A DNA stretch of 64,000 nt from an uncultured Christensenellaceae bacterium (lineage in GTDB: Bacteria; Bacillota; Clostridia; Christensenellales; UBA3700), in the NCBI GenBank assembly GCA_944380355.1, contig CALWHJ010000002.1, positions 128,368 to 192,367 on the forward strand, given 5' to 3'. This document shows positions 231 to 17,076 of the stretch, one piece after another. Under the pieces are notes generated by a model. That model saw only the letters and a program-made list of their open reading frames with translations, did not search any database and was not told the origin of the DNA. The translations under genes were made by a program, and so were the position numbers. How positions within the stretch are numbered: position 1 is the first letter of the stretch; the number at the start of each line of letters is the position of its first letter.

Positions 231-3089
231 ATGATTTGCAAAAACTGCCAAAAGCAATACGACGGACAAATTTGTCCCAGTTGCGGTGAGAAAGCCGATG
301 AGATGCAAAAGTGCCCTGTTTGCGGAACAGAACGCGTAGGGGAAGAAAAAAAGTGCACGAATTGCGGATACGATTATGCGCAATTTGACACGAAGGTTTC
401 TAAAAAAATAAAGGATAATAATAAAACTAAACCTTTTTTTGCGGGAGTATTTTGGATTATTCCTGCCATTGGTACGTTGCTACTGGGTATAATGGTTTTT
501 TTGACTTTGTGCGCGCCTGTTATGTTGCATAAGGGGTACAATATCTCGGGTATAGGTTTTGAGCATATTTTTAAGGTCAAAATAGATTATCTTTTTACTG
601 TTACCAGTGCTCTTACGCTTATATTGTCTATATATGTCATTATTCTGGGTATATCAAGAATAATTAAAGCAGTAGCCCATCCTTATTCCGAATACAAAGC
701 AAAGAAATCATATTGGACAGACGCAATTGTCTGCTTCGCAATACTTGCTATTGGAATAGCAGGTGTGGCCGATGCAGGTAACTGGTTTGGCGATGCAGGT
801 GCTGGATATTCATTCTGCGTGTTTATGGGCTCAGCCGGTATCGTACTCTTAATCGCAAGATATTTTATTTGGGAAAAGGGAATAAAGAAGGACGATGTTG
901 AAGTTGTTTGCCAAAATGTAAAATCAAAAGGACGCGTGTCTGAAAAGGTTGCGCAAAAAGCTTCTAAGGGTATTAAAATAACAAGTGCTTTGCTTGCCGG
1001 TATTATTGTAGCGGCGGTTGTTATAGGAGCCATAATGGGCAGTTTTTATGCTAATCCTTTCAGTAAGACTTCCTTTAAAAATGTTGAGAATAGACAAGAT
1101 ATATCAGACAGATTCGGTATGCCGATTGTAGGCAGCGAAGAGTCAACCTCTTATTTTTACGTTGACAGTAATGTTCAGGGATATGTTACGCTGAATTATA
1201 ATATAGCAAAATTGCAAGCGGAGGCACTGGAAGATTTTATTGAAGACGAAGGTAAGGGAATTAAAGATTTGAAGCAAGCTATGGGTAATTTAGCGGAGCT
1301 TAATTCCGTTGCTGAAAAGCTTAACGGAAAAAGCGAAGGAATAAGCTATAAGGTTACGACTGTAGAATTTAATGCGGACGGAGGAAAAGACAGAAAAGCG
1401 GATACTATAGCGAGCTATGTATGCAAACTTACAAAACAATTGAGCGGAGTGGTTACTCTCGAGAAAAGGCAACTTGAAAGTTTGGATATAATCGACGCTT
1501 TCGTTTTGGAAAATCAAAACAGCGTTACAGTAGAATATTTTGCCGAATATGTTGACGGAAGTTTTATAAAGAATACTGTTAAGGTAGATTATCAAGGCAA
1601 CGAGTTGCCCGCGAGCATTACTTTTAAAGATGAACTGGGCGATTACGAAATAAGTCTTGAAGATGTCAAGACAGTCAGGACAATCGATGATTGCGCATAC
1701 ATATTAGGTGATACTCTCTACGTGTTTGCCGATGTTGAAGGAGAATTGTTTAAATATCCTTCCGAAGCTCAAAACGTCAAAAAAATCGTAATAGAAGAGG
1801 GAGTAACTTCCTTGGCATCGCAAGCTTTTAAATATTGCACTCAGGCGGCTATAATAGTTTTCCCCGAAAGTCTTGATTCGTTGACTTATGCTTCTTTAAA
1901 CGATACCGCATATTACAAGGATAAGGCGAATTGGGAAAAGGGCATTGCATTGTATATTAACGATATGCTTGTAAAGGTAAGTAATGTGAGCGGCGAATAT
2001 AAGATAAGAGAAGGCACCTTGTCGATACAGTACGGAGCCTTTTTGGGCTGCAATGATTTGACAAGCGTGACAATCCCCTCGGGCGTTCAAAAAATCTCGT
2101 CTTATGCTATATCTAATGACGATTATCTGGTTATATACTGCGTTGACGCGGAAAAGCCGGCTAAATGGGAAGAAAATTGGAATGCGTTTAATTCTGTAAT
2201 TTGGGACTGCAATAATAAATCTACGGATGGAAACGGTTACGCGTATTATTTTGAAGACGGTTTAATATACGGATTGAAAGACGGTGTTGCGACTGTTATG
2301 TCGGCTAACGTAAAGGGGCAGGTAAGTATACCTTCTAACGTTAATTATAAATCAGTCGATTATCCTGTTAAATATATTTTTGACAAAGCATTTTATAATT
2401 GTAACGAGATGACGTCAATCGCTATACCTGAAAGTGTAATCGGCATCGGTACGGAGATATTTGGAGAGTGCGATTCATTGACATCGGTCAGTGTAGCACA
2501 GAATAACGCTGTTTATATCGGTACTAATAATTGTATTATTGACAAGACAACAAAGACGCTTATAGCAGGATGCAAGACGAGTTTAATACCTTCTGACGGC
2601 AGTGTAACGTCAATAGGAGACAGTGCTTTTTCTTATTGCAGAGAATTGACGGATATTCAGATACCAGATACTGTAACAAGCATTGGAAACGATGCGTTTA
2701 TGGGATGCAAAAATTTGCAAAGTATTACTCTTCCTACGGGTATCAAGGAAATAGGATGCCATACTTTTTATTATTGCGAAATGCTTGAAGAGGTAATTCT
2801 GCCCGAAAGCATCGAAAAAATAGGAATGTTTGCTTTTGCGTATTGTATAAATCTTAAAGAGATTATATTGCCTGACGGATTGACGACGATAAACAAAAGC
2901 GCGTTCAGCGGTTGTAGTTTTCTCAAAAAAGTGGTTATACCGGCAAGTGTAACTGTAATAGAACAGAATGTATTTGACAATTACAGCGGAATGACTGTTT
3001 ATTGCGAAGCAGATAGTAAGCCCGAAGGTTGGGCATCAAATTGGAATTCAGACGGATACTGCAATGTAGTATGGGGCTACAAAGGTTAA
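231..3089 (+). CDS. Membrane protein with two N-terminal zinc-ribbons, multiple TM helices and a large BspA-type leucine-rich-repeat (LRR_5-like) ectodomain
   Basis: There are four CxxC pairs in the first 50 aa (CKNC/CPSC, CPVC/CTNC). Hydrophobic helices span aa ~68-270. The last ~550 aa contain repeated ~23-aa units such as VTSIGDSAFSYCRELTDIQIPDTVTSIGNDAFMGCKNLQSITLP. An RBS (aaaggagggg) lies upstream and a terminator downstream. Confidence 0.8.
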   Translation: MICKNCQKQYDGQICPSCGEKADEMQKCPVCGTERVGEEKKCTNCGYDYAQFDTKVSKKIKDNNKTKPFFAGVFWIIPAIGTLLLGIMVFLTLCAPVMLHKGYNISGIGFEHIFKVKIDYLFTVTSALTLILSIYVIILGISRIIKAVAHPYSEYKAKKSYWTDAIVCFAILAIGIAGVADAGNWFGDAGAGYSFCVFMGSAGIVLLIARYFIWEKGIKKDDVEVVCQNVKSKGRVSEKVAQKASKGIKITSALLAGIIVAAVVIGAIMGSFYANPFSKTSFKNVENRQDISDRFGMPIVGSEESTSYFYVDSNVQGYVTLNYNIAKLQAEALEDFIEDEGKGIKDLKQAMGNLAELNSVAEKLNGKSEGISYKVTTVEFNADGGKDRKADTIASYVCKLTKQLSGVVTLEKRQLESLDIIDAFVLENQNSVTVEYFAEYVDGSFIKNTVKVDYQGNELPASITFKDELGDYEISLEDVKTVRTIDDCAYILGDTLYVFADVEGELFKYPSEAQNVKKIVIEEGVTSLASQAFKYCTQAAIIVFPESLDSLTYASLNDTAYYKDKANWEKGIALYINDMLVKVSNVSGEYKIREGTLSIQYGAFLGCNDLTSVTIPSGVQKISSYAISNDDYLVIYCVDAEKPAKWEENWNAFNSVIWDCNNKSTDGNGYAYYFEDGLIYGLKDGVATVMSANVKGQVSIPSNVNYKSVDYPVKYIFDKAFYNCNEMTSIAIPESVIGIGTEIFGECDSLTSVSVAQNNAVYIGTNNCIIDKTTKTLIAGCKTSLIPSDGSVTSIGDSAFSYCRELTDIQIPDTVTSIGNDAFMGCKNLQSITLPTGIKEIGCHTFYYCEMLEEVILPESIEKIGMFAFAYCINLKEIILPDGLTTINKSAFSGCSFLKKVVIPASVTVIEQNVFDNYSGMTVYCEADSKPEGWASNWNSDGYCNVVWGYKG

Positions 3090-3105
3090 ACTAACTAATT
3101 GGCGA

Positions 3106-3140
3106 CAAAAAATACCGACAATAGCTTGTCGGTATTTTTG
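3106..3140 (+). terminator. Rho-independent terminator
   Basis: Stem ataccgaca (3112-3120) pairs with tgtcggtat (3127-3135) and is followed by a T-run. The flanking A-run means it could also work for the convergent minus-strand gene. Confidence 0.7.
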
Positions 3141-3206
3141 TGTTAATACAATTATATCAATATTATGCACGATATATAAATTGTTTGGATTTGCGATTTA
3201 TAGGTT

Positions 3207-4028
3207 TTATTTTGCGCGGTAACCGTTGTAGGAATAGAGTGGCAAATTTTTTTGTATTCGAGCGAGGGTGTAGGTTTGCAGAGCGTTTTTAGGAGCGTAA
3301 TTTGCGCGGTCTTTTTTATAGCCGAATACACGCCTTTCGTTCATATCGCTGTCGGGGACGTAGCCGAGAATGTGGAAGAGTTTACCGAACTTTACGATAT
3401 TGCTGTCTTCTCCGAGTACGTTTTCTAGGTTGGGATTGACAAGCCAGGTTATCACGGTATAACAGCGGTATTTGTAGTCGGGATAATACTTTTCAAAAAA
3501 GGCGTTTGCGTCTTTTATTGAGGCAAGGCATTTTTGGGTATCGAGTTTTTCTCCCTGAGGGATATGCAGGGTAATGCATTTTTCTCCTAAGCGGTAGGGA
3601 CATTTGATTACGTCCTTTAATTTTGCGTGAGGAAGTATCAAAAAACGCGAAAATTCGTATTGAAGCCTTCCTATGCGGAAGATTTTCATTGAGAGATGTT
3701 TTGCTATCCAGCTAAGATTTTCAAGTCCCTGAGCGCCGTATTGTTCAAAGCCGTTGTCGCACCATATTTTGATATCCGAGAAAGTGTCGAAAAATATTTT
3801 TTCGTCTATGCCTTTTTCCTGATATTTAGCGTATACGTAAGGCAGGGCATTCAGGACCAGCGCGAGTTTTTGTTTGCCGTCGAGTTTGCGCGCGAAACCG
3901 CATTTACCTTTGAGTAAGAGGTAAAGAGTTTTATCGCAAAATTCTTTGTTGGAGTCTGTCCACCTGAGAGATTGTTGGGCGAGATTTTCGTCGATATTCA
4001 ATTTTATACAAATATCTTTTGCAGTCAT
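3207..4028 (-). CDS. Hypothetical protein, possibly DUF5596 plus GNAT-like C-terminal domain (acyltransferase-like) family
   Basis: This is a 273-aa ORF with no competing frame. The motifs RIGRLQYEF, ITLHIPQGEKL and CYTVITWLVNPNL resemble what I remember of that family. The assignment is from memory only. Confidence 0.4.
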   Translation of the reverse strand: MTAKDICIKLNIDENLAQQSLRWTDSNKEFCDKTLYLLLKGKCGFARKLDGKQKLALVLNALPYVYAKYQEKGIDEKIFFDTFSDIKIWCDNGFEQYGAQGLENLSWIAKHLSMKIFRIGRLQYEFSRFLILPHAKLKDVIKCPYRLGEKCITLHIPQGEKLDTQKCLASIKDANAFFEKYYPDYKYRCYTVITWLVNPNLENVLGEDSNIVKFGKLFHILGYVPDSDMNERRVFGYKKDRANYAPKNALQTYTLARIQKNLPLYSYNGYRAK

Positions 4029-4247
4029 ACTTCAATTATAGATTATAAGACGTATGCAGTCAATACGTCGTATCCTGCATACCGATATAAAATTTTTGTA
4101 AAAAAGCTTTTTTATAAATTGCAGATATTTGACACTAATCTTTTATTTTTGCTTACGAGCAGGGGTGAGATGCGTCAAAATCACGCAAAATACCGTCTGT
4201 TACGGCTTTTTCGCGGCAGGTGTGTTTAGGGGCAAAATCCATTCGAC

Positions 4248-4276
4248 TTGACAAATTGACAAAAATATAGTAAAAT
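4248..4276 (+). promoter_or_regulatory. Candidate SigA promoter of citrate synthase (TTGACA-17-TAAAAT)
   Basis: TTGACA at 4248-4253, a 17-nt spacer, TAAAAT at 4271-4276. Confidence 0.5.
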
Positions 4277-4385
4277 CTTTGAGTAAGCGCGATTTTTGAG
4301 GGCGCATTTCAAAAGTCAGATATATAAGTTTTTAAACAAGTTAGGATAATTTTTTCTCTGTCTTAGGTCAGAAAAAGGAGGATAT

Positions 4386-5738
4386 ATGTTCGATAAGAAA
4401 ACAGTATTGGATAACTATGCTCAAAGCTGTCTTGACAGCTATCCCGTCGACAGCTCGCTGTACACTGAGTTCAACGTAAAGCGAGGACTGAGAGACAAGT
4501 CGGGCAAAGGCGTAGTCGCAGGTATTACCGACATATCCAAAATAGTATCTTTTAAGGAAGAAGACGGTAAGCAAGTTGCTTGCGACGGCGAATTGTACTA
4601 CAGAGGTTACAGCATAAATTCGCTTGTGGACGGGCTGATAGCGGGCGACAGATTCGGTTTTGAGGAGATAACCTATCTTTTGTTGTTCGGTGAACTGCCC
4701 GACAAAAATCAGCTTGCCGAGTTTTGCGAAATGCTTACCGAGATGCGCAAGCTTCCACGCAACTTTACAAAGGACGTTATACTCAAGGCACCCAGCAAAG
4801 ATATGATGATGAGCCTTTCTAGGAGCGTGCTTACGCTTGCTTCTTACGACAAGAAATTCGATGACATAAGCGTGCGCAACGTTATCAAACAGAGCCTTAT
4901 ACTTATAAGCGTATTCCCTATGCTAGCGGTCTACGGCTATCAGGCATACAATCATTATATTTGCGACGACAGCTTGTATATACACAGACCTGACCCCAAT
5001 CTTTCCACCGCGCAAAACTTTTTGCGTATGCTTCGTCCCGACACGAAGTTCAGCGAGCTTGAGGCAAAGGTACTCGACCTCGCGCTTATACTGCATATGG
5101 AACACGGCGGCGGCAACAATTCCACGTTTACCACGCGCGTAGTTACTTCTTCGGGTACAGACACGTATTCTGCTGTTTCGGCTGCGCTTGCGTCGCTCAA
5201 AGGTCCCAAGCACGGCGGAGCGAATATCAAGGTAGTACAGATGATGAAAAACATACGCGAACACGTCCGCGACCTCGAGGACGAAGACGAGATTTACGCA
5301 TACCTCATAAAGATTTTGAGAAAAGAAGCGTTTGACGGCAAAGGTTTGATTTACGGAATGGGTCACGCAGTATATTCTCTGTCCGACCCCAGAGCGCAGG
5401 TATTCAAAAAATTCATTCACGAGCTTTCCAAGTCCAAGGGAAGAAGCAAACAGTATTCATTCTATGAGAGAGTGGAAAGGCTTGCGGCTAAGGCAATCGC
5501 CAGCGAAAGAGCAATATACAAGGGCGTAAGCGCAAACGTGGATTTTTACAGCGGTTTCGTATACAGTATGCTGGGTATTCCCGTGGAGCTTTATACGCCT
5601 ATGTTTGCCATCGCGAGAATAGTAGGTTGGTCGGCGCACAGACTTGAGGAACTTATCAACGCAGATAAGATTATCCGTCCCGCTTACATAGACATAGTCA
5701 AGATTAGAGATTATAAAAATCTCGAGGACAGAAAGTAA
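4386..5738 (+). CDS. gltA: Citrate synthase (citrate/2-methylcitrate synthase family)
   Basis: Family signatures are present: LILHMEHGGGNNSTF, GPKHGGAN, GMGHAVYSLSDPRA and NVDFYSGFVY. The RBS is aaaggagg. The length of 450 aa is typical. Confidence 0.9.
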   Translation: MFDKKTVLDNYAQSCLDSYPVDSSLYTEFNVKRGLRDKSGKGVVAGITDISKIVSFKEEDGKQVACDGELYYRGYSINSLVDGLIAGDRFGFEEITYLLLFGELPDKNQLAEFCEMLTEMRKLPRNFTKDVILKAPSKDMMMSLSRSVLTLASYDKKFDDISVRNVIKQSLILISVFPMLAVYGYQAYNHYICDDSLYIHRPDPNLSTAQNFLRMLRPDTKFSELEAKVLDLALILHMEHGGGNNSTFTTRVVTSSGTDTYSAVSAALASLKGPKHGGANIKVVQMMKNIREHVRDLEDEDEIYAYLIKILRKEAFDGKGLIYGMGHAVYSLSDPRAQVFKKFIHELSKSKGRSKQYSFYERVERLAAKAIASERAIYKGVSANVDFYSGFVYSMLGIPVELYTPMFAIARIVGWSAHRLEELINADKIIRPAYIDIVKIRDYKNLEDRK

Positions 5739-5770
5739 AAATATCTCTTCGTATTTACGCGAATATACTT

Positions 5771-5795
5771 AAAAAGGACCGCAAGGTCCTTTTTG
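5771..5795 (+). terminator. Rho-independent terminator
   Basis: aggacc (5775-5780), loop gcaa, ggtcct (5785-5790), then TTTT. Confidence 0.75.
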
Positions 5796-5934
5796 CAACG
5801 TATGTTTTTTTGTGCTAGGAGTTCTGAATTACCGATTTTAATGGCAAAAGATACCTTAATCGGTCAGATAGAAGCTTACAATATAAACTTATTGTATATG
5901 CGTTATTCTCAGACGGCGTGTGTGTTAGTGAGTA

Positions 5935-5963
5935 TTGACACCGTGCGCGCAAGATATTATAAT
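5935..5963 (+). promoter_or_regulatory. Candidate SigA promoter (TTGACA-17-TATAAT) for the 6016-10607 gene string
   Basis: TTGACA at 5935-5940, a 17-nt spacer, TATAAT at 5958-5963. Confidence 0.5.
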
Positions 5964-6015
5964 TAAAACGTAAGATAAAAACAGTTTTGACACGCAACGG
6001 CGGAAGGAGGTTTTT

Positions 6016-7506
6016 GTGAAGAAGAAAACCGTAATAATATTGACGGCTGTACTTACAGTACTGACATTGACGATGCTAATCGCGTCGGCTGTCGTTTTGA
6101 CCGTGAATACGGGAGAAGGCGCAGACAAGTACTTAGGCAAAGACCTTACTGCGGACGCTACGGAAATAACTGCTTCTACCAACGAGGCTTTGACGCGCTT
6201 TGTTACGGACGGCAACGTCAACACCTTCTGGCAGGGCGAGAGAAGAGGAAGCCACATACAGTTTTATTTTGAAAAAGGTATAGAATTCAATACCGTAGTT
6301 ATAAGCGAAACGGGTATGAGCATCAGCGCGTTTGAGATATATGTGAGCAATAACGGAAAGCATTTCGACAAGGTTTACGAGCAGGACAGAATACAGCGCG
6401 GCAGACTGTGCGCAATGACCGGGCAGTTAAACGCTAAATACGTAACTTTGAGAATTATAGACAGTGAGGCGTCCCCCCGAATAAACGATATAAGCATATA
6501 CAATGCCCAAAAATCGGGGGAGGATTTTTCTCTTGCTTCGCGTTTTGATATAGAAGACGCCGTATATCGAATTGCCGATTGGAATGCGGACGGCATTATC
6601 CCTGAATACGATGAGGTTTACGAATTGTTTGACGGAGCGAAACTCGGACTTTTCGACGAGGTAGTAATCGACGCGGGAATAGTGTGGAGTGCAGAGGGAG
6701 AGCTTTTGGCGGATAACGTAATATCGGACAACGTTGAGGCAAGCGAATTCACTCTCGATAATATAGTAAAAGCTTTGGGATATCTCAACGAAGTCAAGTC
6801 GGAAAATACGAAATTTATTCTTTCGCTTAGTGCTAAGGATGCAGGCGCTGTAAATACGGATTACTCCGTGCTTGCCCGAAATGTAAAAAGATTTTTGGCT
6901 GACAACGGCTTTGACGGAGCGGAGATAGACTGTACTTTGGCTGACGGCAAAAATCAGAGTATTTATTATGCCGACGCTATTGAGGCTTTAAGAGGTGCTT
7001 TGGGAGAAGAGACGTATATTTTAGCGGCTTTGACTACAGGACAGCTTAAGTATTATTCAGGCGCAGCTGACAAGATTGACAAGGTAAATCTCGTCGGCTT
7101 CGGACAGCTTGACCAAAACGGCGACAGCGCGGCGTTTTACGCTTCGTGCATACAGGCGGTGGATATTTGTCTGAACAACGGATTTAAGGAAAAACAGATA
7201 AATCTCGGCGCGCCTTTATACGGAGCATATTCAAAAGATGCCGAAGAAGTATACGCTTATTCTTCCGTCGAAGGGGAATACGGCTGGTATGACAACGTAT
7301 TCGAATGCGCGTGGCGTGAAGAAAGAGTATCCGACATACGCTTCAACGGCAAGCAGCTTTTGTACGACAAGACATGCTATGCAATATACAGAGGTTTGGG
7401 CGGAATTACGCTTTTCGCTCTTGAATGCGACAGGGCGGGAATAGGAGAAGATACGCTTTCTTATGCAGCCTGCAAGGCAGTAAGCGACGCGGAGGGCAGA
7501 GTATGA
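6016..7506 (+). CDS. Signal-anchored protein with an F5/8-type-C (discoidin) domain and a GH18-like TIM-barrel domain lacking the canonical catalytic Glu
   Basis: GTG start after the RBS ggaaggagg. There is an N-terminal hydrophobic anchor. The discoidin-like stretch is FVTDGNVNTFWQGE...YVTLRIID. The GH18-like stretches are FDGAEIDCT (in place of DGxDxDWE) and INLGAPLYG. Confidence 0.6.
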   Translation: MKKKTVIILTAVLTVLTLTMLIASAVVLTVNTGEGADKYLGKDLTADATEITASTNEALTRFVTDGNVNTFWQGERRGSHIQFYFEKGIEFNTVVISETGMSISAFEIYVSNNGKHFDKVYEQDRIQRGRLCAMTGQLNAKYVTLRIIDSEASPRINDISIYNAQKSGEDFSLASRFDIEDAVYRIADWNADGIIPEYDEVYELFDGAKLGLFDEVVIDAGIVWSAEGELLADNVISDNVEASEFTLDNIVKALGYLNEVKSENTKFILSLSAKDAGAVNTDYSVLARNVKRFLADNGFDGAEIDCTLADGKNQSIYYADAIEALRGALGEETYILAALTTGQLKYYSGAADKIDKVNLVGFGQLDQNGDSAAFYASCIQAVDICLNNGFKEKQINLGAPLYGAYSKDAEEVYAYSSVEGEYGWYDNVFECAWREERVSDIRFNGKQLLYDKTCYAIYRGLGGITLFALECDRAGIGEDTLSYAACKAVSDAEGRV

Positions 7507-9215: not shown

Positions 9216-10607
9216 ATGAATACGTGTATACAGATTACGGTCAACGGCGACAAAATCGTCGTCAACAGAGGAGCTGTACTCTCCGATATACTCAAATCGC
9301 GGGGGTACCGTTTTGCAATGCCTTGCGGCGGCAGAGGAATATGTCGCAAATGCAAAGTGAGTGCAGACGGAAAAGAGGTATTAGCGTGCAAATATATCGT
9401 TACTCAGCCTGTCGATATCGTATTGCCTGAATTTTCAGACGGTAAGTACGAGGAATTGACAGAGAAAGCAGAGGGGGTATGCCGTATATCGACGGATATA
9501 GGCACCACGACGGTAGAAACGGCTGTAACGGACAGCGAGGGGAATATACTCGCGAGAGTAAGGTTTGCAAATCCTCAAAGCGTTTACGGAGCGGACGTAG
9601 TCAACAGAATAGAGTATTGTTCGAAAAACGGTGCAAGAGCATTGCAAAAGATACTCATAGACGAGATAAAATCGCGATTAAAAAACCTTTTGGGAAAAAG
9701 CGCAAAAGTTGAAAGAATGGACTTTGCGGGCAATACCGTGATGACGCTTTTGCTTATGGGAAAGGACTGTTCTTCTATGGGGCAGTATCCTTATACGCCA
9801 TTGTTTCTCGACTCTCAGACAACAAGCGCGAAAGAGTTGGGTTTTGAGTTTGATTGCGAGGTACGTACTTTGCCTTGTATATCGGCTTTTGCCGGTGGCG
9901 ATACAGTAGCAGGACTGTTGACTTTGCCTGAGCCCTCACGAGGGAAGTATTCGCTTTTTATGGATTTGGGAACGAATGCCGAGATCGTACTCTTTGGCGA
10001 GAATGGATATACTGCAGTTTCTGCCCCTGCGGGACCCTGTATGGAAGGTGCGAATATATCGTGCGGAATGAGTGCCGTTGAGGGAGCGATTACGCATTTT
10101 AAACATCCCGATAAGGTGGAATTTTTAGGAGAAAAGCCCTCGGGATTGTGCGGTAGCGGACTTATCGACGTTGTGGGACAGCTGTACAAATCCGGGATAA
10201 TAGACGACAGCGGCGATATGCGCGAAGACTTCAGACTGGCTGAAGGTGTTATTTTAAAACGCGAAGACGTAAGGCAATATCAGCTTGCAAAATCGGCCAT
10301 AAGAGCCGCGACGGAGGAACTTCTCGAGTACAAGAGAGTGAACAAACGCGATATAGAAAGAGTTTATCTTGCAGGCGGTTTTTCCTCGCATACCGACGTC
10401 GATAATGCCGTGGCAACAGGATTGATAGCTAAAGAATTTGACAGGATTTGCGTAGCAGTTGGCAACTGTTCTCTCAAAGGTTGCATACTCTATAACCGCA
10501 ATCAGAAAAAAGCAGACGCGATTGCCGCCGACGCAGAATATCTTGACCTCAACTCACGCGAAAGTTTTTCGGAAAAGTTTATTAAGTTTATGAATTTCGG
10601 TGTATGA
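9216..10607 (+). CDS. 2Fe-2S ferredoxin-domain plus ASKHA-fold ATPase protein (DUF4445 / corrinoid-activation RACo-like family)
   Basis: The N-terminal motif PCGGRGICRKCKV...LAC resembles a plant-type ferredoxin cluster motif. ASKHA-like phosphate motifs follow (ISTDIGTTTVE, MDLGTNAEIV, GLCGSGLID). At 463 aa it is shorter than the typical family member. Confidence 0.55.
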   Translation: MNTCIQITVNGDKIVVNRGAVLSDILKSRGYRFAMPCGGRGICRKCKVSADGKEVLACKYIVTQPVDIVLPEFSDGKYEELTEKAEGVCRISTDIGTTTVETAVTDSEGNILARVRFANPQSVYGADVVNRIEYCSKNGARALQKILIDEIKSRLKNLLGKSAKVERMDFAGNTVMTLLLMGKDCSSMGQYPYTPLFLDSQTTSAKELGFEFDCEVRTLPCISAFAGGDTVAGLLTLPEPSRGKYSLFMDLGTNAEIVLFGENGYTAVSAPAGPCMEGANISCGMSAVEGAITHFKHPDKVEFLGEKPSGLCGSGLIDVVGQLYKSGIIDDSGDMREDFRLAEGVILKREDVRQYQLAKSAIRAATEELLEYKRVNKRDIERVYLAGGFSSHTDVDNAVATGLIAKEFDRICVAVGNCSLKGCILYNRNQKKADAIAADAEYLDLNSRESFSEKFIKFMNFGV

Positions 10608-10867
10608 AATGCAAGACTTTAGAGATATGATTGATTGATAATTTGAATACCAAACAAGGATATTTCGACCGTTTACTTTTGAGAGGCTTATGAGACAATG
10701 CCAAACGAAAAGGCAAATACGGAGGTAGAGAAAACACAATATCTTAATAGACATTGCAATACAAATGAAAATAGCGAGAAGGCAAAAAGCGAAAGATTGC
10801 CAAAGCGGATCAGCGGGCAACTTCGCTTGCCTTTCGCTTTCATTTTAGCAAGTCAAAGGGTTATTCA

Positions 10868-10925
10868 GACGTGTGCTTGTCTGGCGGAGCGAAGCGACGC
10901 CACTTGTCTATGACAAGCACACGTC
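10868..10925. repeat. Perfect 14-bp inverted repeat (gacgtgtgcttgtc / gacaagcacacgtc) enclosing a nested tggcg/cgcca hairpin
   Basis: The arms lie at 10868-10881 and 10912-10925. The repeat sits exactly where the base composition switches to AT-rich. Confidence 0.8.
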
Positions 10926-11168
10926 ACGGTGCCAAGATTGATTAATTATACATTTTCAATTGTGAAATTTACTCATTTTTGTTATATTATAAGTAACGAA
11001 AGAGTTAAAACTTTTTCATTTATAACATTCAAGTGGGGATAAGTTTGTTGAAAATTATTTAAAAGAAAGTCTACCATCAATTCATTAAATAACCTATCGC
11101 ATATAAAGCAAAAATAGTTCGTTGAGAGCTATGAATTAGAACAAAATAGAAGGAGAAATACGTATAAT

Positions 11169-14100
11169 ATGAGTGAAGTTAAAATTATAGAAAAGGAAAT
11201 TTCTATAATCCGTGATAAATATTTAAGATCTGCTATTGACATTCTTTCTGACTACAATAATGAAAACAAAACAAAGTTAGACTATAAAGGACGTCAAATT
11301 TATGAGTTACTTCAAAATGCTGACGATTGTTATTCTGATGATTGTGCCGATATAAAGGTTAAAATAGAACTTCGTGAAAACTTTTTAATAATCCAAAATA
11401 CAGGCAAGCCTTTTAATTCTCGCGGCATTATTTCTTTGATGCACCCTGACGCAAGTTCAAAGCATCAAGGAACAATTGGATGCAAAGGACTGGGATTTAG
11501 GTCTATTTTGAACTGGGCAAACAAAATTTCAATTTGTACAAAATCTTTTATTGCTAATTTTTCTGAAGAGAGAGCAACCTCTCAACTTCAGTTTTATAAG
11601 GAACATTGTGATCAAGATCATGTTCATGAATTGGACAGTATTGACAGAATTGCCATTTTAAGTTCAGCAGAGGTAAATAATGATTCTGCTGAAATAGAAA
11701 AATGGCTTGATGATGGCTTTTCAACATCTATCGTTTTGCATTGCAATTCTGAATATGTTGATACAATACAAAAACAGCTAATTGAGTTGCAGTTTGAGGA
11801 ATTACTTTTTTTAAAACATATCAGAAATATTCATATTATATCACCAAAAGCAAAAAGAAACATTGAAGCAGTGTCTGATGGCGAACGATTCTTAATCCAG
11901 GATGGAGATAATTTTACCGATTGGACTGTTTGGCAAAGAACCGGTAGTATTCAACAAAAAGATGGAACAGAAAAAGCATTTGAGCTGATAATTGCATATA
12001 ATAACGATAAATTGGTAAGAGATAAAATACGTGAAGAAGGTGTTTTATATTCATACTTTAAGACAGAAATTCCAATGCCGTTTCCTTTTTTGATACACGG
12101 TACTTTTGAACTTACAAGTGAACGCAATGGTTTGATTAAAGAGAGTGTTAACAATGAAAAGCTTCTTGAACTTTTGGTTGATTTTATAAGTGACAAGGGA
12201 TCTGAAATTGCAGCGAACAGTCAGCAGTATGATTATACTGCACTTGAATTTCTATTACCTTCACAGCAATTATATTTTCTAGATAAACAATATGATTTCA
12301 CCTCAAAACTCAAGAAGAAAATCAAAGGATGCAAGTTGTTCCCAACTATTGATGATAGATACATAAGTTTAGATGAGCTGCCTCGCTATTCTAATAAAGA
12401 CTTTGCTCGCTATGTATCGAAAAAAACTTTTAACTCTTTATTAAAGCCTTGTAAAAACGACACGATTCTTTCATATTTTAAAGAATTAGGCATAAGTTTT
12501 TATTCTTCAGAAGAATTAGTTGCATTACTAAATGTGGATGCGGATGAATATGTTAATTCAGGTGTTCATGATAAACTTATAATTCTTTATCATGAGACGT
12601 ATTCATATGTGAACATTGCGCCAAAGTTACTGGTTGACAGCAATGGAAAACGAATAGCAGATGAAAATTTAACCATTTTCAATAATGATGAAAATAGATT
12701 TACTCTGCCTGAATGGAGCGAAATGCGGTTTATTGATTTGAATTTAGAGAAAAAACTACTCAAATCATTTAACTGTGACTCCAGACGTTTAATGGAAATT
12801 CTCAAAGTATACGGAGGTGCAGAATATTCGTTTGACAATGTTGTTCGTCAACTTGTATCTCAATGTAGAGAAGATAAGCAAAAAACTAAAGATTTGTTAA
12901 AGTGGCTGTTTGACAATTGGTGCAATAATAATTATTCCTTTAAAAGCGGATTGAAAAATATTAATATTAGGTTGATATCTCGTGATGGAAACATAGAACA
13001 AAGTTCAAAATGCTATTTTGGAAAAGAATATGGAAACGATATAGGTGAAAGGATAATTTCTTGTTTAGATACTCCGGTTTTTGTTTCCGGAATAGATGAA
13101 CTTGGACTGACCGGCGCAGATATGCACTTAGTAAAAGCCTTTTTATCTCAACTTGATGTCAAAGAATATCCACCGATTGCAAAGAAATCTTTAACCGGTC
13201 AAGATTACAGAAAATATATAGAATATAATTCAGAAAAGTATCCTGAGTTATCCGTAAGAAATGAAACCTATAGATACGATTACTTTTTCTATCAAATTTC
13301 TAGAGAAGTTCAAGTCGCTGATATCATCGGCTTTGAAAACATACTAAAATACGCTGATTATCGTGATATTATTTATTGGATGATCAATGACAATAATTTA
13401 AATATACATATCAAAAATATAAATGAAATTGATGATTTTTCTCATATGTGGGGCTTTCCATATAAGAAAAAGGACACTCGGTGGGTTTATAAAGATCAAA
13501 TGCTTTCGTGGCTTCGTTTGAAGATCGTCGAAACAGCTTGGCTTCCTGTAAAAAGTGGTAAAAAAGTCAACTCAAACCGCTGTACAATAACTCCTCATTC
13601 TCTTTCCCCCATCGTAGAAGTTTTGAATATTGATTATAATTCAATTTCAAAGATGTTCGGCAGACCTATAAAAAAAGAAATAGATGCACTTCTTGAAGCA
13701 TTGGGAGTTGCAGATGATATTGTTGACTTGCCAAATGAAACAATATACGAAATCTTATTAACTTTGCCGGATTTTGATAAGGACTGTACTTTAGGTAAGA
13801 CTATATATACGAAGTTAAATTTACATTTTGATAAAGAATCTACCGCTCGTTTGATTAAAAATAATCTTACATATCAGAAATTTCTCAGAGAAGGAAAAGT
13901 ACTTGCGGAATTGGACGGTAAATATAAATATATTCCAATAAATGAAGTATATTATGTCGGTAAAAAAATATATAGTGATGATATCTTAAAAAACTATCCT
14001 GTTCTCGCATTGAACAGACGTGCAGGTGATGATAAAATCAAATCGCTTTTCGGAGTACAATCTATTAAAGCAATCGGCAGTATAAAAGTTACTCCTATAT

Positions 14101-15683
14101 TTCATCACCTAAATGACGAATTTCAGCTTGAATATCATAAATTGTTGCCATATATTTATGCAAGGCGACTTGATGTTGATACAAAAAATAAAGAACTCAA
14201 TTTATTAAAAAGCAGCAAAATTTTTTTGGTAAACGATGCTTACACCGAGCATTATGTAAACGGAGAGTTAAAAAAAGGTAAATTGCGCGATTACGAATTG
14301 ATTTATACTGATAAAACTGCTTATATTATGGTTCCGCAATTTATTAATACATTAACAGAATTAAAGAGGCAGCTAAAATTCAAAAATGCTGCCGCTGAAG
14401 TAATAACAACAATTCTTGATGTAGATAGAGACAAAGATGCATATTTACTTATTTTTGGGTCTACAATAAGTGAAATCGAGATGTATTTTCAGACAAATGA
14501 TGAGACTTCTTTAGTTAATATTGCTAAAGAAAAATTCAGCAATACCATTGATTTGCGTCATGAATTTTGGCTTGCAATTGCAAACGCTTTGTCTGAAAGT
14601 GTTGATCTAATAGAAAATCAATATGCCCATTTGTTGCCTCAAGAGTTTGATTATCATAAAATCAATGACTCTTCAAATGGTAAATATATTATTGATCTGT
14701 TTATTGCATTGAATATAGATGTTGACGCTTACAATGAGAGTGCTTTTGAACAATTGACTTTGCAAAATTATTATAAAGAAAAATGGATTGAATTGAAAAA
14801 CTCCTACAGAAGCAAGTATTTATGTTACAAAGCAGAACAACTGTTAAATGAGGGGAAGAAAAAATCAGAATTTGATATGATCAGAAAAAATTATGATTTT
14901 TATGAACCTATTATTGAAAATAGCATAAAAGTCAATATTGTTTCAATTTTTGAAAAATATGTTGATGTTCAATTGGAACTTTTGGATATTGCAGATGAGA
15001 ACTATGATGCAATTTATTCAAAATTACAGAGTGATAGCACTATAGTATCGACTTCCCTTAACGAAAATAGTAGTCCAGCCAAAAATGAACCTTCTGACAA
15101 TATTGATTATGTAGCATTGAACAATGAAATTGCTGCGATAACTTCAGGTGGAACGGTTATACCGAATTTATCAGCATCAGAACATCAATCCTACAAAAGA
15201 GCCCACGGTCATGGATCTGGTGGAACCGTTCCGAGAAACACAGCTATACTTAAAGAACATGATGGTTTTATCGCCGAAAGCAAAGTGTACAACACTTTAT
15301 TGAAAAAGATAGGGTCTTCGGGTTCAGTTGAATGGATTTCCGGCAATGGCGTACGCGCCGGGCAAACAAAAGAAAAAGATGGAGACGATTCTTGTGGTTA
15401 CGATATTCGATATACCGATGCCGAAGGGAAATTACATTATGTTGAAGTTAAAGGCACTTCTTCAGGAAATTTGGAATTCATACTCACAAAAAACGAATTC
15501 AACTTTGCTCAGCAACATAAAGAACAGTATGAACTATGGTTTGTATTTATAGAAGACGGTAAAGCTGGCGAGCCTTATGAACTTGGAACAATATTCGTGT
15601 TTGATGACAACGAAGACTTCTTTCATAATCACAGGTTTACTGTTGAACAAACTGATTTTAAATTAAGAGCGAAAATGAATTGA
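11169..15683 (+). CDS. 1,504-aa protein with an N-terminal sacsin/MORC-like GHKL (HATPase_c_3-type) ATPase, a ~1,000-aa uncharacterised middle region and a C-terminal DUF3883-like PD-(D/E)xK nuclease domain
   Basis: N-terminal motifs are YELLQNADD (nt 11301-11327), IQNTGKPF, GCKGLGFRSILNW and FPFLIHGTFELTSERNGL. C-terminal motifs are GYDIRY...HYVEVKG...LTKNEFNFAQQHKEQYELWFVF (D...EVK at nt ~15396-15452). It is a single uninterrupted ORF with no long antisense ORFs. Confidence 0.7.
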   Translation: MSEVKIIEKEISIIRDKYLRSAIDILSDYNNENKTKLDYKGRQIYELLQNADDCYSDDCADIKVKIELRENFLIIQNTGKPFNSRGIISLMHPDASSKHQGTIGCKGLGFRSILNWANKISICTKSFIANFSEERATSQLQFYKEHCDQDHVHELDSIDRIAILSSAEVNNDSAEIEKWLDDGFSTSIVLHCNSEYVDTIQKQLIELQFEELLFLKHIRNIHIISPKAKRNIEAVSDGERFLIQDGDNFTDWTVWQRTGSIQQKDGTEKAFELIIAYNNDKLVRDKIREEGVLYSYFKTEIPMPFPFLIHGTFELTSERNGLIKESVNNEKLLELLVDFISDKGSEIAANSQQYDYTALEFLLPSQQLYFLDKQYDFTSKLKKKIKGCKLFPTIDDRYISLDELPRYSNKDFARYVSKKTFNSLLKPCKNDTILSYFKELGISFYSSEELVALLNVDADEYVNSGVHDKLIILYHETYSYVNIAPKLLVDSNGKRIADENLTIFNNDENRFTLPEWSEMRFIDLNLEKKLLKSFNCDSRRLMEILKVYGGAEYSFDNVVRQLVSQCREDKQKTKDLLKWLFDNWCNNNYSFKSGLKNINIRLISRDGNIEQSSKCYFGKEYGNDIGERIISCLDTPVFVSGIDELGLTGADMHLVKAFLSQLDVKEYPPIAKKSLTGQDYRKYIEYNSEKYPELSVRNETYRYDYFFYQISREVQVADIIGFENILKYADYRDIIYWMINDNNLNIHIKNINEIDDFSHMWGFPYKKKDTRWVYKDQMLSWLRLKIVETAWLPVKSGKKVNSNRCTITPHSLSPIVEVLNIDYNSISKMFGRPIKKEIDALLEALGVADDIVDLPNETIYEILLTLPDFDKDCTLGKTIYTKLNLHFDKESTARLIKNNLTYQKFLREGKVLAELDGKYKYIPINEVYYVGKKIYSDDILKNYPVLALNRRAGDDKIKSLFGVQSIKAIGSIKVTPIFHHLNDEFQLEYHKLLPYIYARRLDVDTKNKELNLLKSSKIFLVNDAYTEHYVNGELKKGKLRDYELIYTDKTAYIMVPQFINTLTELKRQLKFKNAAAEVITTILDVDRDKDAYLLIFGSTISEIEMYFQTNDETSLVNIAKEKFSNTIDLRHEFWLAIANALSESVDLIENQYAHLLPQEFDYHKINDSSNGKYIIDLFIALNIDVDAYNESAFEQLTLQNYYKEKWIELKNSYRSKYLCYKAEQLLNEGKKKSEFDMIRKNYDFYEPIIENSIKVNIVSIFEKYVDVQLELLDIADENYDAIYSKLQSDSTIVSTSLNENSSPAKNEPSDNIDYVALNNEIAAITSGGTVIPNLSASEHQSYKRAHGHGSGGTVPRNTAILKEHDGFIAESKVYNTLLKKIGSSGSVEWISGNGVRAGQTKEKDGDDSCGYDIRYTDAEGKLHYVEVKGTSSGNLEFILTKNEFNFAQQHKEQYELWFVFIEDGKAGEPYELGTIFVFDDNEDFFHNHRFTVEQTDFKLRAKMN

Positions 15684-15750
15684 ATGCTTTTTAAGTATGC
15701 TATAAAAAGCATAGTAAAAAACGTAAGTTGAACTTCTGGTTCAACTTACG
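15684..15750. terminator. Two stem-loops after the island gene; the second is a 12-bp perfect stem with an A-run on its left flank, which reads as a U-tract on the minus strand
   Basis: The first hairpin is atgcttttta (15684-15693) with taaaaagcat (15703-15712). The second is cgtaagttgaac (15722-15733) with gttcaacttacg (15739-15750). The plus-strand U-tract is weak. The minus-strand version is followed by TTTTTT, so it may insulate the gene from convergent tRNA read-through. Confidence 0.5.
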
Positions 15751-15757
15751 CTTATAA

Positions 15758-16147
15758 TGGTGCCGAAGGCGGGACTTGTAAGGAGCAGAGCGACGGAATA
15801 GCGAGCAAGCGGATAGCGTCTCGTGCGAGCGTCACATTATTTCGGTAATCCTAACTTTGACAGCAAAGAGAGAGTCGAGGAAAAAGCGATAAAAAAATAG
15901 AGAGATTGACGTCTCTCTAATTTTTTTGTCTCAATACGAGACTCTCAAAAACTGGTGCCGAAGGCGGGACTTGTAAGGAGCGGAGCGACGGAATAGCGAG
16001 CAAGCGGATAGCGTCTCGTGCGAGCGTCACATTATTTCGGTAATCCTAACTTTGACAGCAAAGAGAGAGTCGAGGAAAAAGCGATAAAAAAATAGAGAGA
16101 TTGACGTCTCTCTAATTTTTTTGTCTCAATACGAGACTCTCAAAAAC
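15758..16147. repeat. Two tandem 195-bp direct repeats, each starting with the last 21 nt of tRNA-Leu and containing a copy of the tRNA terminator
   Basis: Units 15758-15952 and 15953-16147 differ at a single position (ggagcAgagcg versus ggagcGgagcg). Both start with tggtgccgaaggcgggacttg, which is identical to 16148-16168 of the intact tRNA. Confidence 0.95.
16086..16122 (-). terminator. Bidirectional Rho-independent terminator downstream of tRNA-Leu (a duplicate copy lies at 15891-15927)
   Basis: An A-run, then tagagaga (16093-16100), loop ttgacg, tctctcta (16107-16114), then a T-run. Confidence 0.7.
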
Positions 16148-16234
16148 TGGTGCCGAAGGCGGGACTTGAACCCGCACGATGTCGCCATCACCGGATTTTG
16201 AGTCCGGCGCGTCTGCCAATTCCACCACTTCGGC
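16148..16234 (-). tRNA. tRNA-Leu (anticodon CAA), type II with a long variable arm and an encoded CCA
   Basis: The minus strand reads GCCGAAG-UG-...-CCGGA CUCAAAA UCCGG-(long variable arm)-GCGGG UUCAAGU CCCGC-CUUCGGC-A-CCA. The acceptor stem has 7 bp. The anticodon loop is C-U-CAA-A-A. Confidence 0.93.
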
Positions 16235-16415
16235 GTAGGGATTGCGCTTTTGCTTTATTATATTAGCATACAATTTTACTATTTGCAATTGATTTTTTAT
16301 GTAATTAAACAAAAATAATCAAAAATTTTGAAAAAATTATAGATTTATCGCGCTCATTGTAGTACAATATTAGTATCCTTTATGAGGAATTTTGCTGGAT
16401 AGAAAAGGGGTAATT

Positions 16416-16949
16416 ATGAACGTTTGGCACGATTTGAGCAAAGACAGGATTAAGCCTGAGGACTTTATCAGTTGTATAGAGATACCCAAGGGCTGCAAAA
16501 ACAAATACGAGGTAGACAAGCAGACGGGTATGCTTATACTTGACAGAATACTGTATACGGCTACGCACTACCCGGCGAATTACGGATTTATACCGCGTAC
16601 ATATGCAGATGACGGTGACCCGCTGGACGTATTGGTTCTGTGCAGCGAAGAGATTGCGCCGCTTGCGCTTGTCAGGTGTTATCCGATAGGACAGATATCT
16701 ATGATAGACGAGGGGCGAGAAGATATAAAGATACTTGCAGTGCCTTACAGGGACCCTAACTGGAATTGTTATAAAGACGTAAGCGAATTACCTCCGCACA
16801 TTATCGAGGAGATAAAGCACTTTTTCGGCGTATACAAGCAACTCGAGGGCAAGAAGATGGAGGTGCTTGAGTTGTCTGGAAAGGATTCGGCAGTAGAGTC
16901 CATAGTCAAAGCCATAGAATTGTACGAAGAAGTATTTTTAAAGGACTGA
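16416..16949 (+). CDS. ppa: Inorganic diphosphatase (family I)
   Basis: MNVWHDL...IEIPKG..NKYEVDK...LDRILYT...YPANYGFIP.T...DGDPLDVLV is a classic family I PPase pattern. I chose the start at 16416 because it follows the RBS aaaagggg. Confidence 0.9.
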   Translation: MNVWHDLSKDRIKPEDFISCIEIPKGCKNKYEVDKQTGMLILDRILYTATHYPANYGFIPRTYADDGDPLDVLVLCSEEIAPLALVRCYPIGQISMIDEGREDIKILAVPYRDPNWNCYKDVSELPPHIIEEIKHFFGVYKQLEGKKMEVLELSGKDSAVESIVKAIELYEEVFLKD

Positions 16950-17076
16950 TAAACTGATTAAAGTAAATAAAAGGGGAGAGATACGGTTATAGCCGTATAT
17001 GTTAGCGGGCAGAGTTTTGCGTGAGGGGTACGCCGGACTGTTGTTGAGGAGCATTTTACACGAATACTAAAGAAGA

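Follow-up and report, generated by a model that had tools for sequence, protein, structure and literature searches.

Tiamat is a single-gene anti-phage system named in the supplement, not in the main text, of the preprint of Millman et al. (2022). Table S20 of that supplement lists TmtA genes and marks one of them, Bacillus cereus FORC_005 gene 2641244160, as 'Verified', and the constructs table gives 'SG165 Tiamat v' the domains 'Hsp90, DUF3684, DUF3883' and a length of 1,590 amino acids (aa). Later papers treat Tiamat as a routine category of PADLOC and DefenseFinder surveys (PMC12926258; PMC10482375), one survey puts it among the single-gene PD-(D/E)xK systems (bioRxiv 2024.10.26.620412), and it has been reported to be almost always chromosomal (PMC10482375). 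Here, we describe a 1,504-codon gene within a 64,000-nucleotide (nt) stretch of a metagenome-assembled genome (MAG) of an uncultured Christensenellaceae bacterium (GCA_944380355.1, contig CALWHJ010000002.1, positions 128,368 to 192,367 of the forward strand; hereafter the window, whose own numbering is used throughout). We consider it very likely that this gene is tmtA, the sole component of the Tiamat anti-phage system, and that it arrived by horizontal transfer as part of a 5.1-kb cassette at a variable hotspot.

NO VEIN, a plant protein and the namesake of the NOV_C domain found in the TmtA tail, pairs a sacsin-like head with a NOV_C tail. Prokaryotic MORC and paraMORC conflict systems combine an ATPase of the GHKL superfamily with nuclease effectors in defense islands. 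Sacsin and NO VEIN differ from TmtA in being eukaryotic, in their other extra domains and in being linked to chaperone functions or to development. Sacsin contains three head repeats (SRR/SIRPT) along with Ubl, DnaJ and HEPN domains and no NOV_C domain, whereas TmtA has one head and a nuclease. The NOV_C domain, also known as DUF3883, was placed in the PD-(D/E)xK superfamily in 2012 (PMC3424549) and serves as the catalytic part of YenY4I, a restriction enzyme for which DNA cleavage was shown (PMC6765204). HmaA (Hma), PD-T4-1, PDC-S36 and YenY4I/McaZI have the same C-terminal NOV_C/DUF3883 module as TmtA; the motor or sensor differs, in that HmaA uses a SNF2 helicase, YenY4I has PUA/DUF3427 readers and TmtA has a Hsp90-like module.

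The open reading frame (ORF) in the window is intact, begins with an ATG preceded by an AGGAG Shine-Dalgarno sequence at a spacing of 8-9 nt and, with 4.5 kb in DNA of 32% GC, is by far too long to be of chance origin. The PADLOC TmtA model PDLC03964 matches its product over nearly the full length (E = 1.1e-267, 890 bits; aa 6-1502 against profile positions 12-1535 of 1538), and five further PADLOC TmtA models match it with E = 6.5e-46 to 5.9e-20. Residues 7-405 are 37% identical (E = 4e-65) to aa 5-398 of B. cereus FORC_005 TmtA, of which the supplement prints the first 399 aa, and the window protein shares 20% identity (E = 2e-9) with an Enterobacter TmtA candidate. These matches leave little doubt that the protein belongs to the Tiamat (TmtA) family, as far as sequence can tell. 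An earlier reading of this DNA, made from the letters alone (the original prediction), had called the gene an orphan and had supposed, to its knowledge, that no member was experimentally characterized as a defense system; the former is contradicted by the full-length match and by the Tiamat models that both PADLOC and DefenseFinder already contain, the latter by the verified B. cereus gene. The PADLOC scan which it had proposed as a check returned Tiamat end to end. The ORF, the length of its product and all the motifs quoted in that reading were found again in the translation, namely YELLQNADD (aa 45-53), IQNTGKPF (aa 75-82), GCKGLGFRSILNW (aa 104-116) and FPFLIHGTFELTSERNGL (aa 305-322) near the N-terminus, and GYDI (aa 1410-1413), YVEVKG (aa 1424-1429), LTKNEFNFA (aa 1439-1447) and YELWFVF (aa 1454-1460) near the C-terminus.

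Like the verified B. cereus TmtA, the window protein is encoded by a single gene of ~1,500-1,590 codons, has a Hsp90/sacsin-like head and a DUF3883 tail, and carries all the N-terminal motifs. It differs in being only about one third identical, in coming from a Clostridia MAG, in being 86 aa shorter and in having no DUF3684 detected by Pfam; moreover, its gene stands alone in a tRNA-side hotspot and not in a multi-system island. The single-gene layout is apparent from the cassette itself, which between 10644 and 15763 has no ORF of at least 150 aa besides tmtA (two small ORFs in the leader gave no Pfam match), and from the homologues, whose neighbors vary from locus to locus without a fixed partner. 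A homologue search returned 934 matches at E <= 1e-5. Of the 120 that were listed, almost all are ~1,500 aa long with PF13020, and those with source names come mostly from Clostridia, Lachnospiraceae, Acutalibacteraceae and Bacilli, with distant relatives in many other phyla. No TmtA relative was found in phage genomes, and plasmids had distant relatives only (<= 25% identity over long alignments), which fits the near-exclusive chromosomal location reported for Tiamat.

The head of TmtA is of the sacsin/Hsp90 branch. The NCBIfam model NF047352 ('sacsin N-terminal ATP-binding-like') matches aa 42-122 (E = 5.1e-18), and Pfam SACS (PF25794) matches 15 of 30 relatives. The original prediction had spoken of a sacsin/MORC-type head and had expected a match to HATPase_c_3 (PF13589). 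No such match was obtained for the window protein at E <= 1 or for any of the 30 relatives at E <= 0.1, and PF02518 did not match the window protein either; the MORC half of the label was therefore dropped, which sets TmtA apart from the MORC/paraMORC systems, and the sacsin half was kept.

From an alignment of 82 sequences, AlphaFold modeled aa 1-750 with a mean predicted local distance difference test score (pLDDT) of 90 and a predicted template modeling score of 0.70. As the original prediction had suggested, the model was searched with Foldseek, whose best PDB matches were full-length Hsp90, TRAP1 and Hsc82 (probability 1.00, ~700 aligned columns, E = 2.6e-11 to 1e-7, 11-14% sequence identity); global template modeling (TM) scores to this group were low (0.27-0.35) because the domains are oriented differently. 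Residues ~216-750 are thus modeled as prolonging the Hsp90/sacsin-like architecture, and the earlier statement that some 1,000 aa between head and tail match nothing fails for this stretch and stands for aa ~750-1290. As in Hsp90, HtpG and TRAP1, the best structural match of this half, TmtA has the equivalent catalytic Glu, Mg-binding Asn and Gly-rich lid; unlike them, it has Asn for the Asp of motif II and 750 extra residues including the nuclease, and it shows no sign of a chaperone function or of the Hsp90-type C-terminal dimerization domain. A sequence search of the PDB with the family profile and with the first 350 aa gave nothing meaningful, so that no PDB chain of TmtA or of a sacsin domain is reachable by sequence.

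In a profile alignment made with hhalign, the residues of yeast Hsp82 that fall opposite E46, N50 and N77 are the catalytic E33, the Mg-binding N37 and the adenine-binding D79, respectively, and G104/G107/G109 fall opposite the lid glycines G118/G121/G123. All six of these residues, together with R319, are invariant in 82 homologues whose identity to the window protein is as low as 29-34%. Motifs I (E46, N50, D53) and III (G104, G107, G109) of the GHKL fold are accordingly present and invariant. Motif II reads N77-T-G79-K-P81 (window 11397-11411) in place of D-x-G-x-G, with both the Asp and the second Gly replaced; since N77 is invariant in the 82 homologues, the TmtA family always has Asn where GHKL ATPases have Asp, and the verified B. 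cereus protein has it as well. Human sacsin likewise has Asn at this position (Asn160), and whether it binds ATP is considered debatable (PMC9880540). It should be noted that Asn77 raises the question of the pocket's ligand.

The original prediction had also counted FPFLIHGTFELTSERNGL among the Bergerat-fold motifs. In the AlphaFold model, FPFLIHGTFELTSERNGL falls in an element made of a strand (aa 307-311), a loop and a long helix (aa 327-350), which holds the invariant R319 and resembles the catalytic-arginine loop of the Hsp90/sacsin middle domain, which would place the motif outside the Bergerat fold proper. By analogy with R380 of Hsp90 and R474 of sacsin (PMC9880540), R319 is a candidate catalytic arginine. 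TmtA and sacsin share the Bergerat subtype, the Asn in place of the adenine-binding Asp, and a downstream middle-domain-like sheet with a candidate catalytic Arg.

The tail gave the sole Pfam match of the protein, to NOV_C/DUF3883 (PF13020, as had been expected; E = 6.4e-16, 58.6 bits against a cut-off of 22.1, aa 1379-1462). PADLOC models of HmaA, PD-T4-1 and PDC-S36 match aa 1403-1476 at 1.3e-9, 8.8e-6 and 7.5e-4, respectively. Residues E1370, D1407, D1412, E1426, K1428 and E1443 are invariant in the 82 homologues, and E1370, D1412, E1426 and K1428 probably form the catalytic set. In the model, the tail comprises a helix (657-685 in the numbering of the C-terminal half), strands and a second helix (742-750). 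Foldseek matched it to the archaeal Holliday-junction resolvase Hjc (2wcz; probability 0.96, TM-score relative to the target 0.48-0.53) and also to SwaI and PvuII, and in BFVD to phage resolvases and NOV_C proteins. The preference for Hjc is weak (E = 0.03) and appears to reflect mainly the minimal PD-(D/E)xK core.

The gene is foreign to its surroundings. The GC content of its coding sequence is 32.1% against 45-46% in the flanks, and GC at third codon positions is 25% against 46-55% in neighboring genes; with a tRNA-Leu(CAA) 465 nt past the stop codon, this bears out the earlier description of a foreign-composition island beside a tRNA. The neighbors are housekeeping genes, encoding a BspA-type leucine-rich repeat (LRR) protein, a GNAT-like protein, citrate synthase, GH18, a RACo-like corrinoid activase, an inorganic pyrophosphatase, ComEC and HolA. 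No methylase, integrase or toxin was found among them, in line with what had been claimed. The identical 1,504-aa protein occurs on ten metagenome contigs; the window and at least nine other contigs encode it intact. More distantly, the cassette at window 10652-15763 aligns over 5,150 nt, with 96% identity, to positions 1332-6478 of a contig (L019) of the MAG 'uncultured Clostridia bacterium BRZ_LA__bin1', whose right-hand flank has 58-60% GC and encodes PolA, malic enzyme and fumarase. The presence of the cassette in a genome of such GC content indicates recent horizontal transfer of a one-gene module, judging from the sequences compared. In L019, a 1-nt deletion at codon 1313 ends the protein at residue 1316, with loss of the nuclease; the contig has a coverage of ~10x, and this copy could be a genuine pseudogene or else the product of an error in assembly. 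The ratio of nonsynonymous to synonymous substitution rates (dN/dS) between the window and L019 genes is 0.2; tmtA is under purifying selection.

Between the Hsp90-like half and the tail lies the part of the protein that varies most. An AlphaFold model of aa 700-1504 had a pLDDT of 89 (~90 for aa 751-1290). For aa ~750-1290, there was no Pfam match and no Foldseek match in the PDB or BFVD at E <= 0.001, with a query that was an 805-aa multi-domain model of lowered sensitivity for sub-domains and that matched through its nuclease tail only. Mean identity of the homologues to the window protein, 0.53-0.59 at aa 1-150, falls to 0.31-0.34 in two stretches (aa 651-750 and 1101-1250) and to 0.22 in aa 1251-1300. 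Compared with L019 over window 11169-15098, tmtA has 9 differences within codons 1-700 (the first 2.1 kb) and 84 within codons 701-1300 (the next 1.8 kb). Such a mosaic points to tmtA alleles having exchanged the middle region by recombination, and aa ~700-1300 would then be an exchangeable part, possibly the specificity part. The tether that follows (aa 1291-1353) is the least conserved stretch of the family, has a pLDDT below 50 at aa 1291-1309 and 1341-1353, and is where the L019 frameshift sits.

Homologues elsewhere keep company with defense genes, a point that the original prediction had proposed to check. Their islands contain type I restriction-modification, DUF2971/PDC-S31, HNH, Abi_2 and recombinase genes; another locus has a type III methyltransferase with BrxL, and further neighbors include AbiH, GmrSD, Fic, AAA_15 and DprA with RecQ. 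A DUF2971 gene (PADLOC candidate PDC-S31, E ~1e-36), absent from the window, lies directly upstream of two homologues of 46-50% identity (L102, 9040-9981; L107, 8208-9776), and may be an accessory gene or a mere frequent neighbor. At a third locus (L114, 14535-16520), a 71%-identical homologue is followed 26 nt on by a DUF2075/SLFN-g3 helicase gene, in an element with a REP_ORF2-G2P replication protein. One 68%-identical homologue stands alone among housekeeping genes, like the window gene. Taken with the PADLOC assignment, the invariant catalytic residues and the models, these neighborhoods support the core of the earlier proposal, namely that a single self-contained gene in a variable island encodes a defense protein whose head is GHKL-type and whose tail is a PD-(D/E)xK DUF3883 domain, and we regard a defense function of tmtA in its present host as likely.

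Several points weigh against this reading. Phage resistance conferred by the window gene is a prediction from its sequence, and the comparison with the verified B. cereus protein covers the first 399 aa of the latter, ahead of a C-terminal part of 1,190 aa. The Enterobacter candidate (SG164, 1,429 aa) is marked 'x' in the table of Millman et al. (2022), which we read as not verified, so that TmtA membership is no guarantee of activity. Pfam hmmscan found no DUF3684 in the window protein or the 30 relatives at E <= 0.1, the label of Millman et al. probably having come from a more sensitive profile comparison, and Pfam GHKL families were undetected in the window protein even at E <= 1. The Asp that contacts adenine in GHKL ATPases appears as an invariant Asn in TmtA, as in sacsin with its debated ATP binding. 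No defense gene adjoins tmtA in the window. The mechanism of Tiamat is given as unknown (PMC12926258; PMC10482375); our literature search, from which subscription journals were largely out of reach, found no mechanistic study, and our data pointed to no particular phage trigger, DNA-binding surface or oligomeric state.

The mechanism that we put forward, tentatively and as something quite possible rather than probable, is one of switching and licensing. The Hsp90-like half would be a nucleotide-driven conformational switch or clamp that cycles on binding and hydrolysis, with E46 as the base, N50 binding Mg2+, N77 contacting adenine, the Gly-rich lid, and R319 as arginine finger, all assigned by alignment. 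The variable middle region would sense infection, the cue being a phage protein or DNA of unusual structure, and sensing would release or position the tethered nuclease, which would cut DNA and stop phage replication. As there is no modification partner, discrimination between self and non-self would lie in the sensor, or the outcome would be abortive infection. Other designs would use the same parts differently. TmtA could be a type IV-like restriction enzyme dependent on modification or structure, with a middle region that reads modified or branched/replicating DNA, a Hsp90-like module that powers clamping or turnover only, and direct cutting without abortive infection. The catalytic role of DUF3883 in the modification-dependent YenY4I, the occurrence of DUF2075 NTPases beside DUF3427-DUF3883 restriction enzymes (PMC6765204) and of a DUF2075/SLFN-g3 helicase gene directly after the 71%-identical homologue, the lack of a methyltransferase partner in the window, as expected of type IV enzymes, and a nuclease fold nearest to the structure-specific resolvase Hjc all speak for such an enzyme; as neither Pfam nor Foldseek detected a PUA, SRA, DUF3427 or YTH reader domain and the Hjc preference is weak, we think it unlikely. 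We rate no higher the idea that the head is a pseudo-ATPase or ligand sensor, with Asn77 for Asp and Pro81 for the second Gly, in which binding alone gates the nuclease allosterically without a hydrolysis cycle. The invariant N77 opposite Hsp90 D79, the debated ATP binding of sacsin with the same substitution, and the failure of Pfam GHKL models on the head would agree with it, but E46, N50, the Gly-rich lid and the candidate finger R319 are all invariant, which is not expected of residues needed for hydrolysis alone, and modeling argues that Asn can retain the adenine contact (PMC9880540). Less likely still, the Hsp90/sacsin-like half could be a client-sensing chaperone module that recognizes a folding or assembling phage protein, rather than DNA, through the fast-diverging middle region and then fires the nuclease; if true, Tiamat would represent prokaryotic chaperone-based immune surveillance and a tractable model for sacsin-type domains.

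Two explanations leave defense aside altogether. The gene could be a non-functional passenger, a decaying remnant of a mobile element without benefit to its present host, as the L019 copy truncated ahead of its nuclease, the loss of any recombinase with att-like scars only, and the absence of tmtA from closely related strains might suggest. Set against this are the identical intact protein on the window and at least nine other contigs, the dN/dS of 0.2, the intact catalytic residues and the possibility that the frameshift is an assembly error at ~10x coverage, and we find a passenger very improbable. A housekeeping chaperone or DNA-repair protein, in which a Hsp90/sacsin-like factor was joined to a resolvase outside any conflict, can point to the Hsp90-like and Hjc-like folds; with a foreign base composition, presence/absence polymorphism among strains, transfer between genomes of unlike GC, homologue neighborhoods rich in defense genes, a relative verified as anti-phage and no conserved syntenic position across the clade, it is barely credible.

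If the assignment to Tiamat holds, the window adds a Clostridia, probably gut-associated, member to a defense family that standard tools detect. Tiamat is a validated system whose mechanism is unreported in the literature searched, and it is the counterpart in bacteria of two poorly understood proteins, sacsin and NO VEIN. The locus and its relatives provide useful natural material in the form of a minimal self-contained 5.1-kb cassette with its leader, a natural allele without nuclease, and the mosaic pattern at aa ~700-1300, all of which could guide the design of constructs for Tiamat phage sensing. The features of the locus are collected in Table 1.

Table 1. Features of the tmtA locus (window coordinates).
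Feature	Position	Strand	Basis
Leader of the cassette: 43.6% GC segment (10644-10930), hairpin (10868-10925), then AT-rich promoter-like sites	10644..11168	+	Strain junctions, RNA fold, promoter scan
Transferable 5.1-kb tmtA cassette, the unit common to an unrelated genome	10652..15763	+	Identity to L019
tmtA, complete Tiamat (TmtA) gene	11169..15683	+	ORF, PADLOC TmtA match, B. cereus TmtA homology
Sacsin/Hsp90-type Bergerat nucleotide-binding domain, then beta-sheet extension and R319 loop (putative catalytic Arg); aa 1-350	11169..12218	+	NCBIfam NF047352, hhalign, AlphaFold (AF2) model
Remainder of the Hsp90-like N-terminal half (middle-domain-like, helical segments); aa 351-750	12219..13418	+	Foldseek
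Alpha/beta and helical region without recognizable relative, candidate specificity/sensor region; aa 751-1290	13419..15038	+	pLDDT ~90, no structural match
Poorly conserved, largely disordered tether from body to nuclease; aa 1291-1353	15039..15227	+	pLDDT, family identity
NOV_C/DUF3883 PD-(D/E)xK nuclease domain; aa 1354-1504	15228..15680	+	Pfam PF13020, Foldseek, invariant residues
Hairpin at right ends of different cargos; terminator-like on minus strand	15715..15757	.	Inverted repeat I18, terminator scan
Two tandem 195-bp units, 99% identical, each with a bidirectional terminator hairpin	15758..16147	.	Repeat families D1, D4
tRNA-Leu(CAA), 3' end toward the cassette, marks the hotspot	16148..16234	-	ARAGORN; Rfam RF00005, 57.1 bits

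Comparison of strains places the island junctions at 10643/10644 on the left (against strain L011) and 15714/15715 on the right, and homology to L019 starts at 10652. Short metagenome contigs (L004-L006) cover only 10906 to ~15800, and several assemblies (L004-L006, L008) break right at the island edges. In strains with an identical pyrophosphatase, tmtA is replaced by other cargo between the RACo-like gene and tRNA-Leu, namely an LRR_5/Flg_new surface protein in L010 and L012, and an HTH protein, a Zn-ribbon/bPH protein and a 204-aa protein in L011. PADLOC scans of the L010 and L011 cargo gave a generic HTH match only; the hotspot thus varies between strains, and these scans do not mark it as reserved for defense.

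Within the leader, promoter-like sites lie at 10960-10988 (extended -10 TG) and 11048-11077. The RNA fold of 10800-10940 has a free energy of -56.3 kcal/mol (z = -4.5), and its hairpin, which lies in the normal-GC part, has a perfect 14-bp stem, no U-run and no Rfam match (an Rfam scan of 10000-17000 returned the tRNA only). Relative to L019, the stem shows two compensatory base-pair changes (A-T to G-C and T-A to C-G) that keep the pairing, and the hairpin could be a regulatory RNA or a recombination site. At the other end of the cassette, a hairpin segment of ~50 nt is conserved at window 15715-15763, L010 ~2841-2890, L012 ~925-975 and L019 ~6430-6478. It is common to the tmtA and LRR-protein cargos, abuts the tRNA-end repeat, and may serve the hotspot as a common module for recombination or termination.

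The first 21 nt of each 195-bp unit are identical to the 3' end of tRNA-Leu (TGGTGCCGAAGGCGGGACTTG), so that copies stand at 15758, 15953 and, in the tRNA itself, 16148 (three against none expected by chance; pattern R-S-R-S-R(tRNA)). One unit is present in L001, L007 and L009, and two in the window and L010; the units look like att-site scars amplified by unequal crossing-over. A fourth copy of TGGTGCCGAAGGCGGGACTTG upstream of tmtA was not found with up to 3 mismatches, no integrase was found within the cassette or its flanks, and sensitive blastn of the left against the right flank gave short matches only (E >= 0.16). The locus thus lacks the integrase and bracketing repeats of a tRNA-integrated island, and the tRNA-side repeats are seen as scars left by integration events at this tRNA. 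The sequence GGTGCCAAG (position 10929), similar to the core of the repeat, was rejected as a boundary, being inside the cassette and common to L019. The 14-nt motif GGAGCGRAGCGACG occurs at 10886-10899, where it forms part of the loop of the leader hairpin, and again in both 195-bp units, shortly past their copies of the tRNA end, at 15782-15795 and 15977-15990 (three against 0.11 expected). It was considered as a target-site duplication or an inverted repeat, and its order relative to GGTGCC(G)AAG (B-A ... A-B, on the same strand) fits neither.

Window 231-3089 encodes a 952-aa BspA-type LRR_5 protein, and the L010 cargo at 357-2750 is also a gene for a surface protein of this kind (LRR_5/Flg_new); the variable gene pool of this organism thus seems to include surface LRR proteins.

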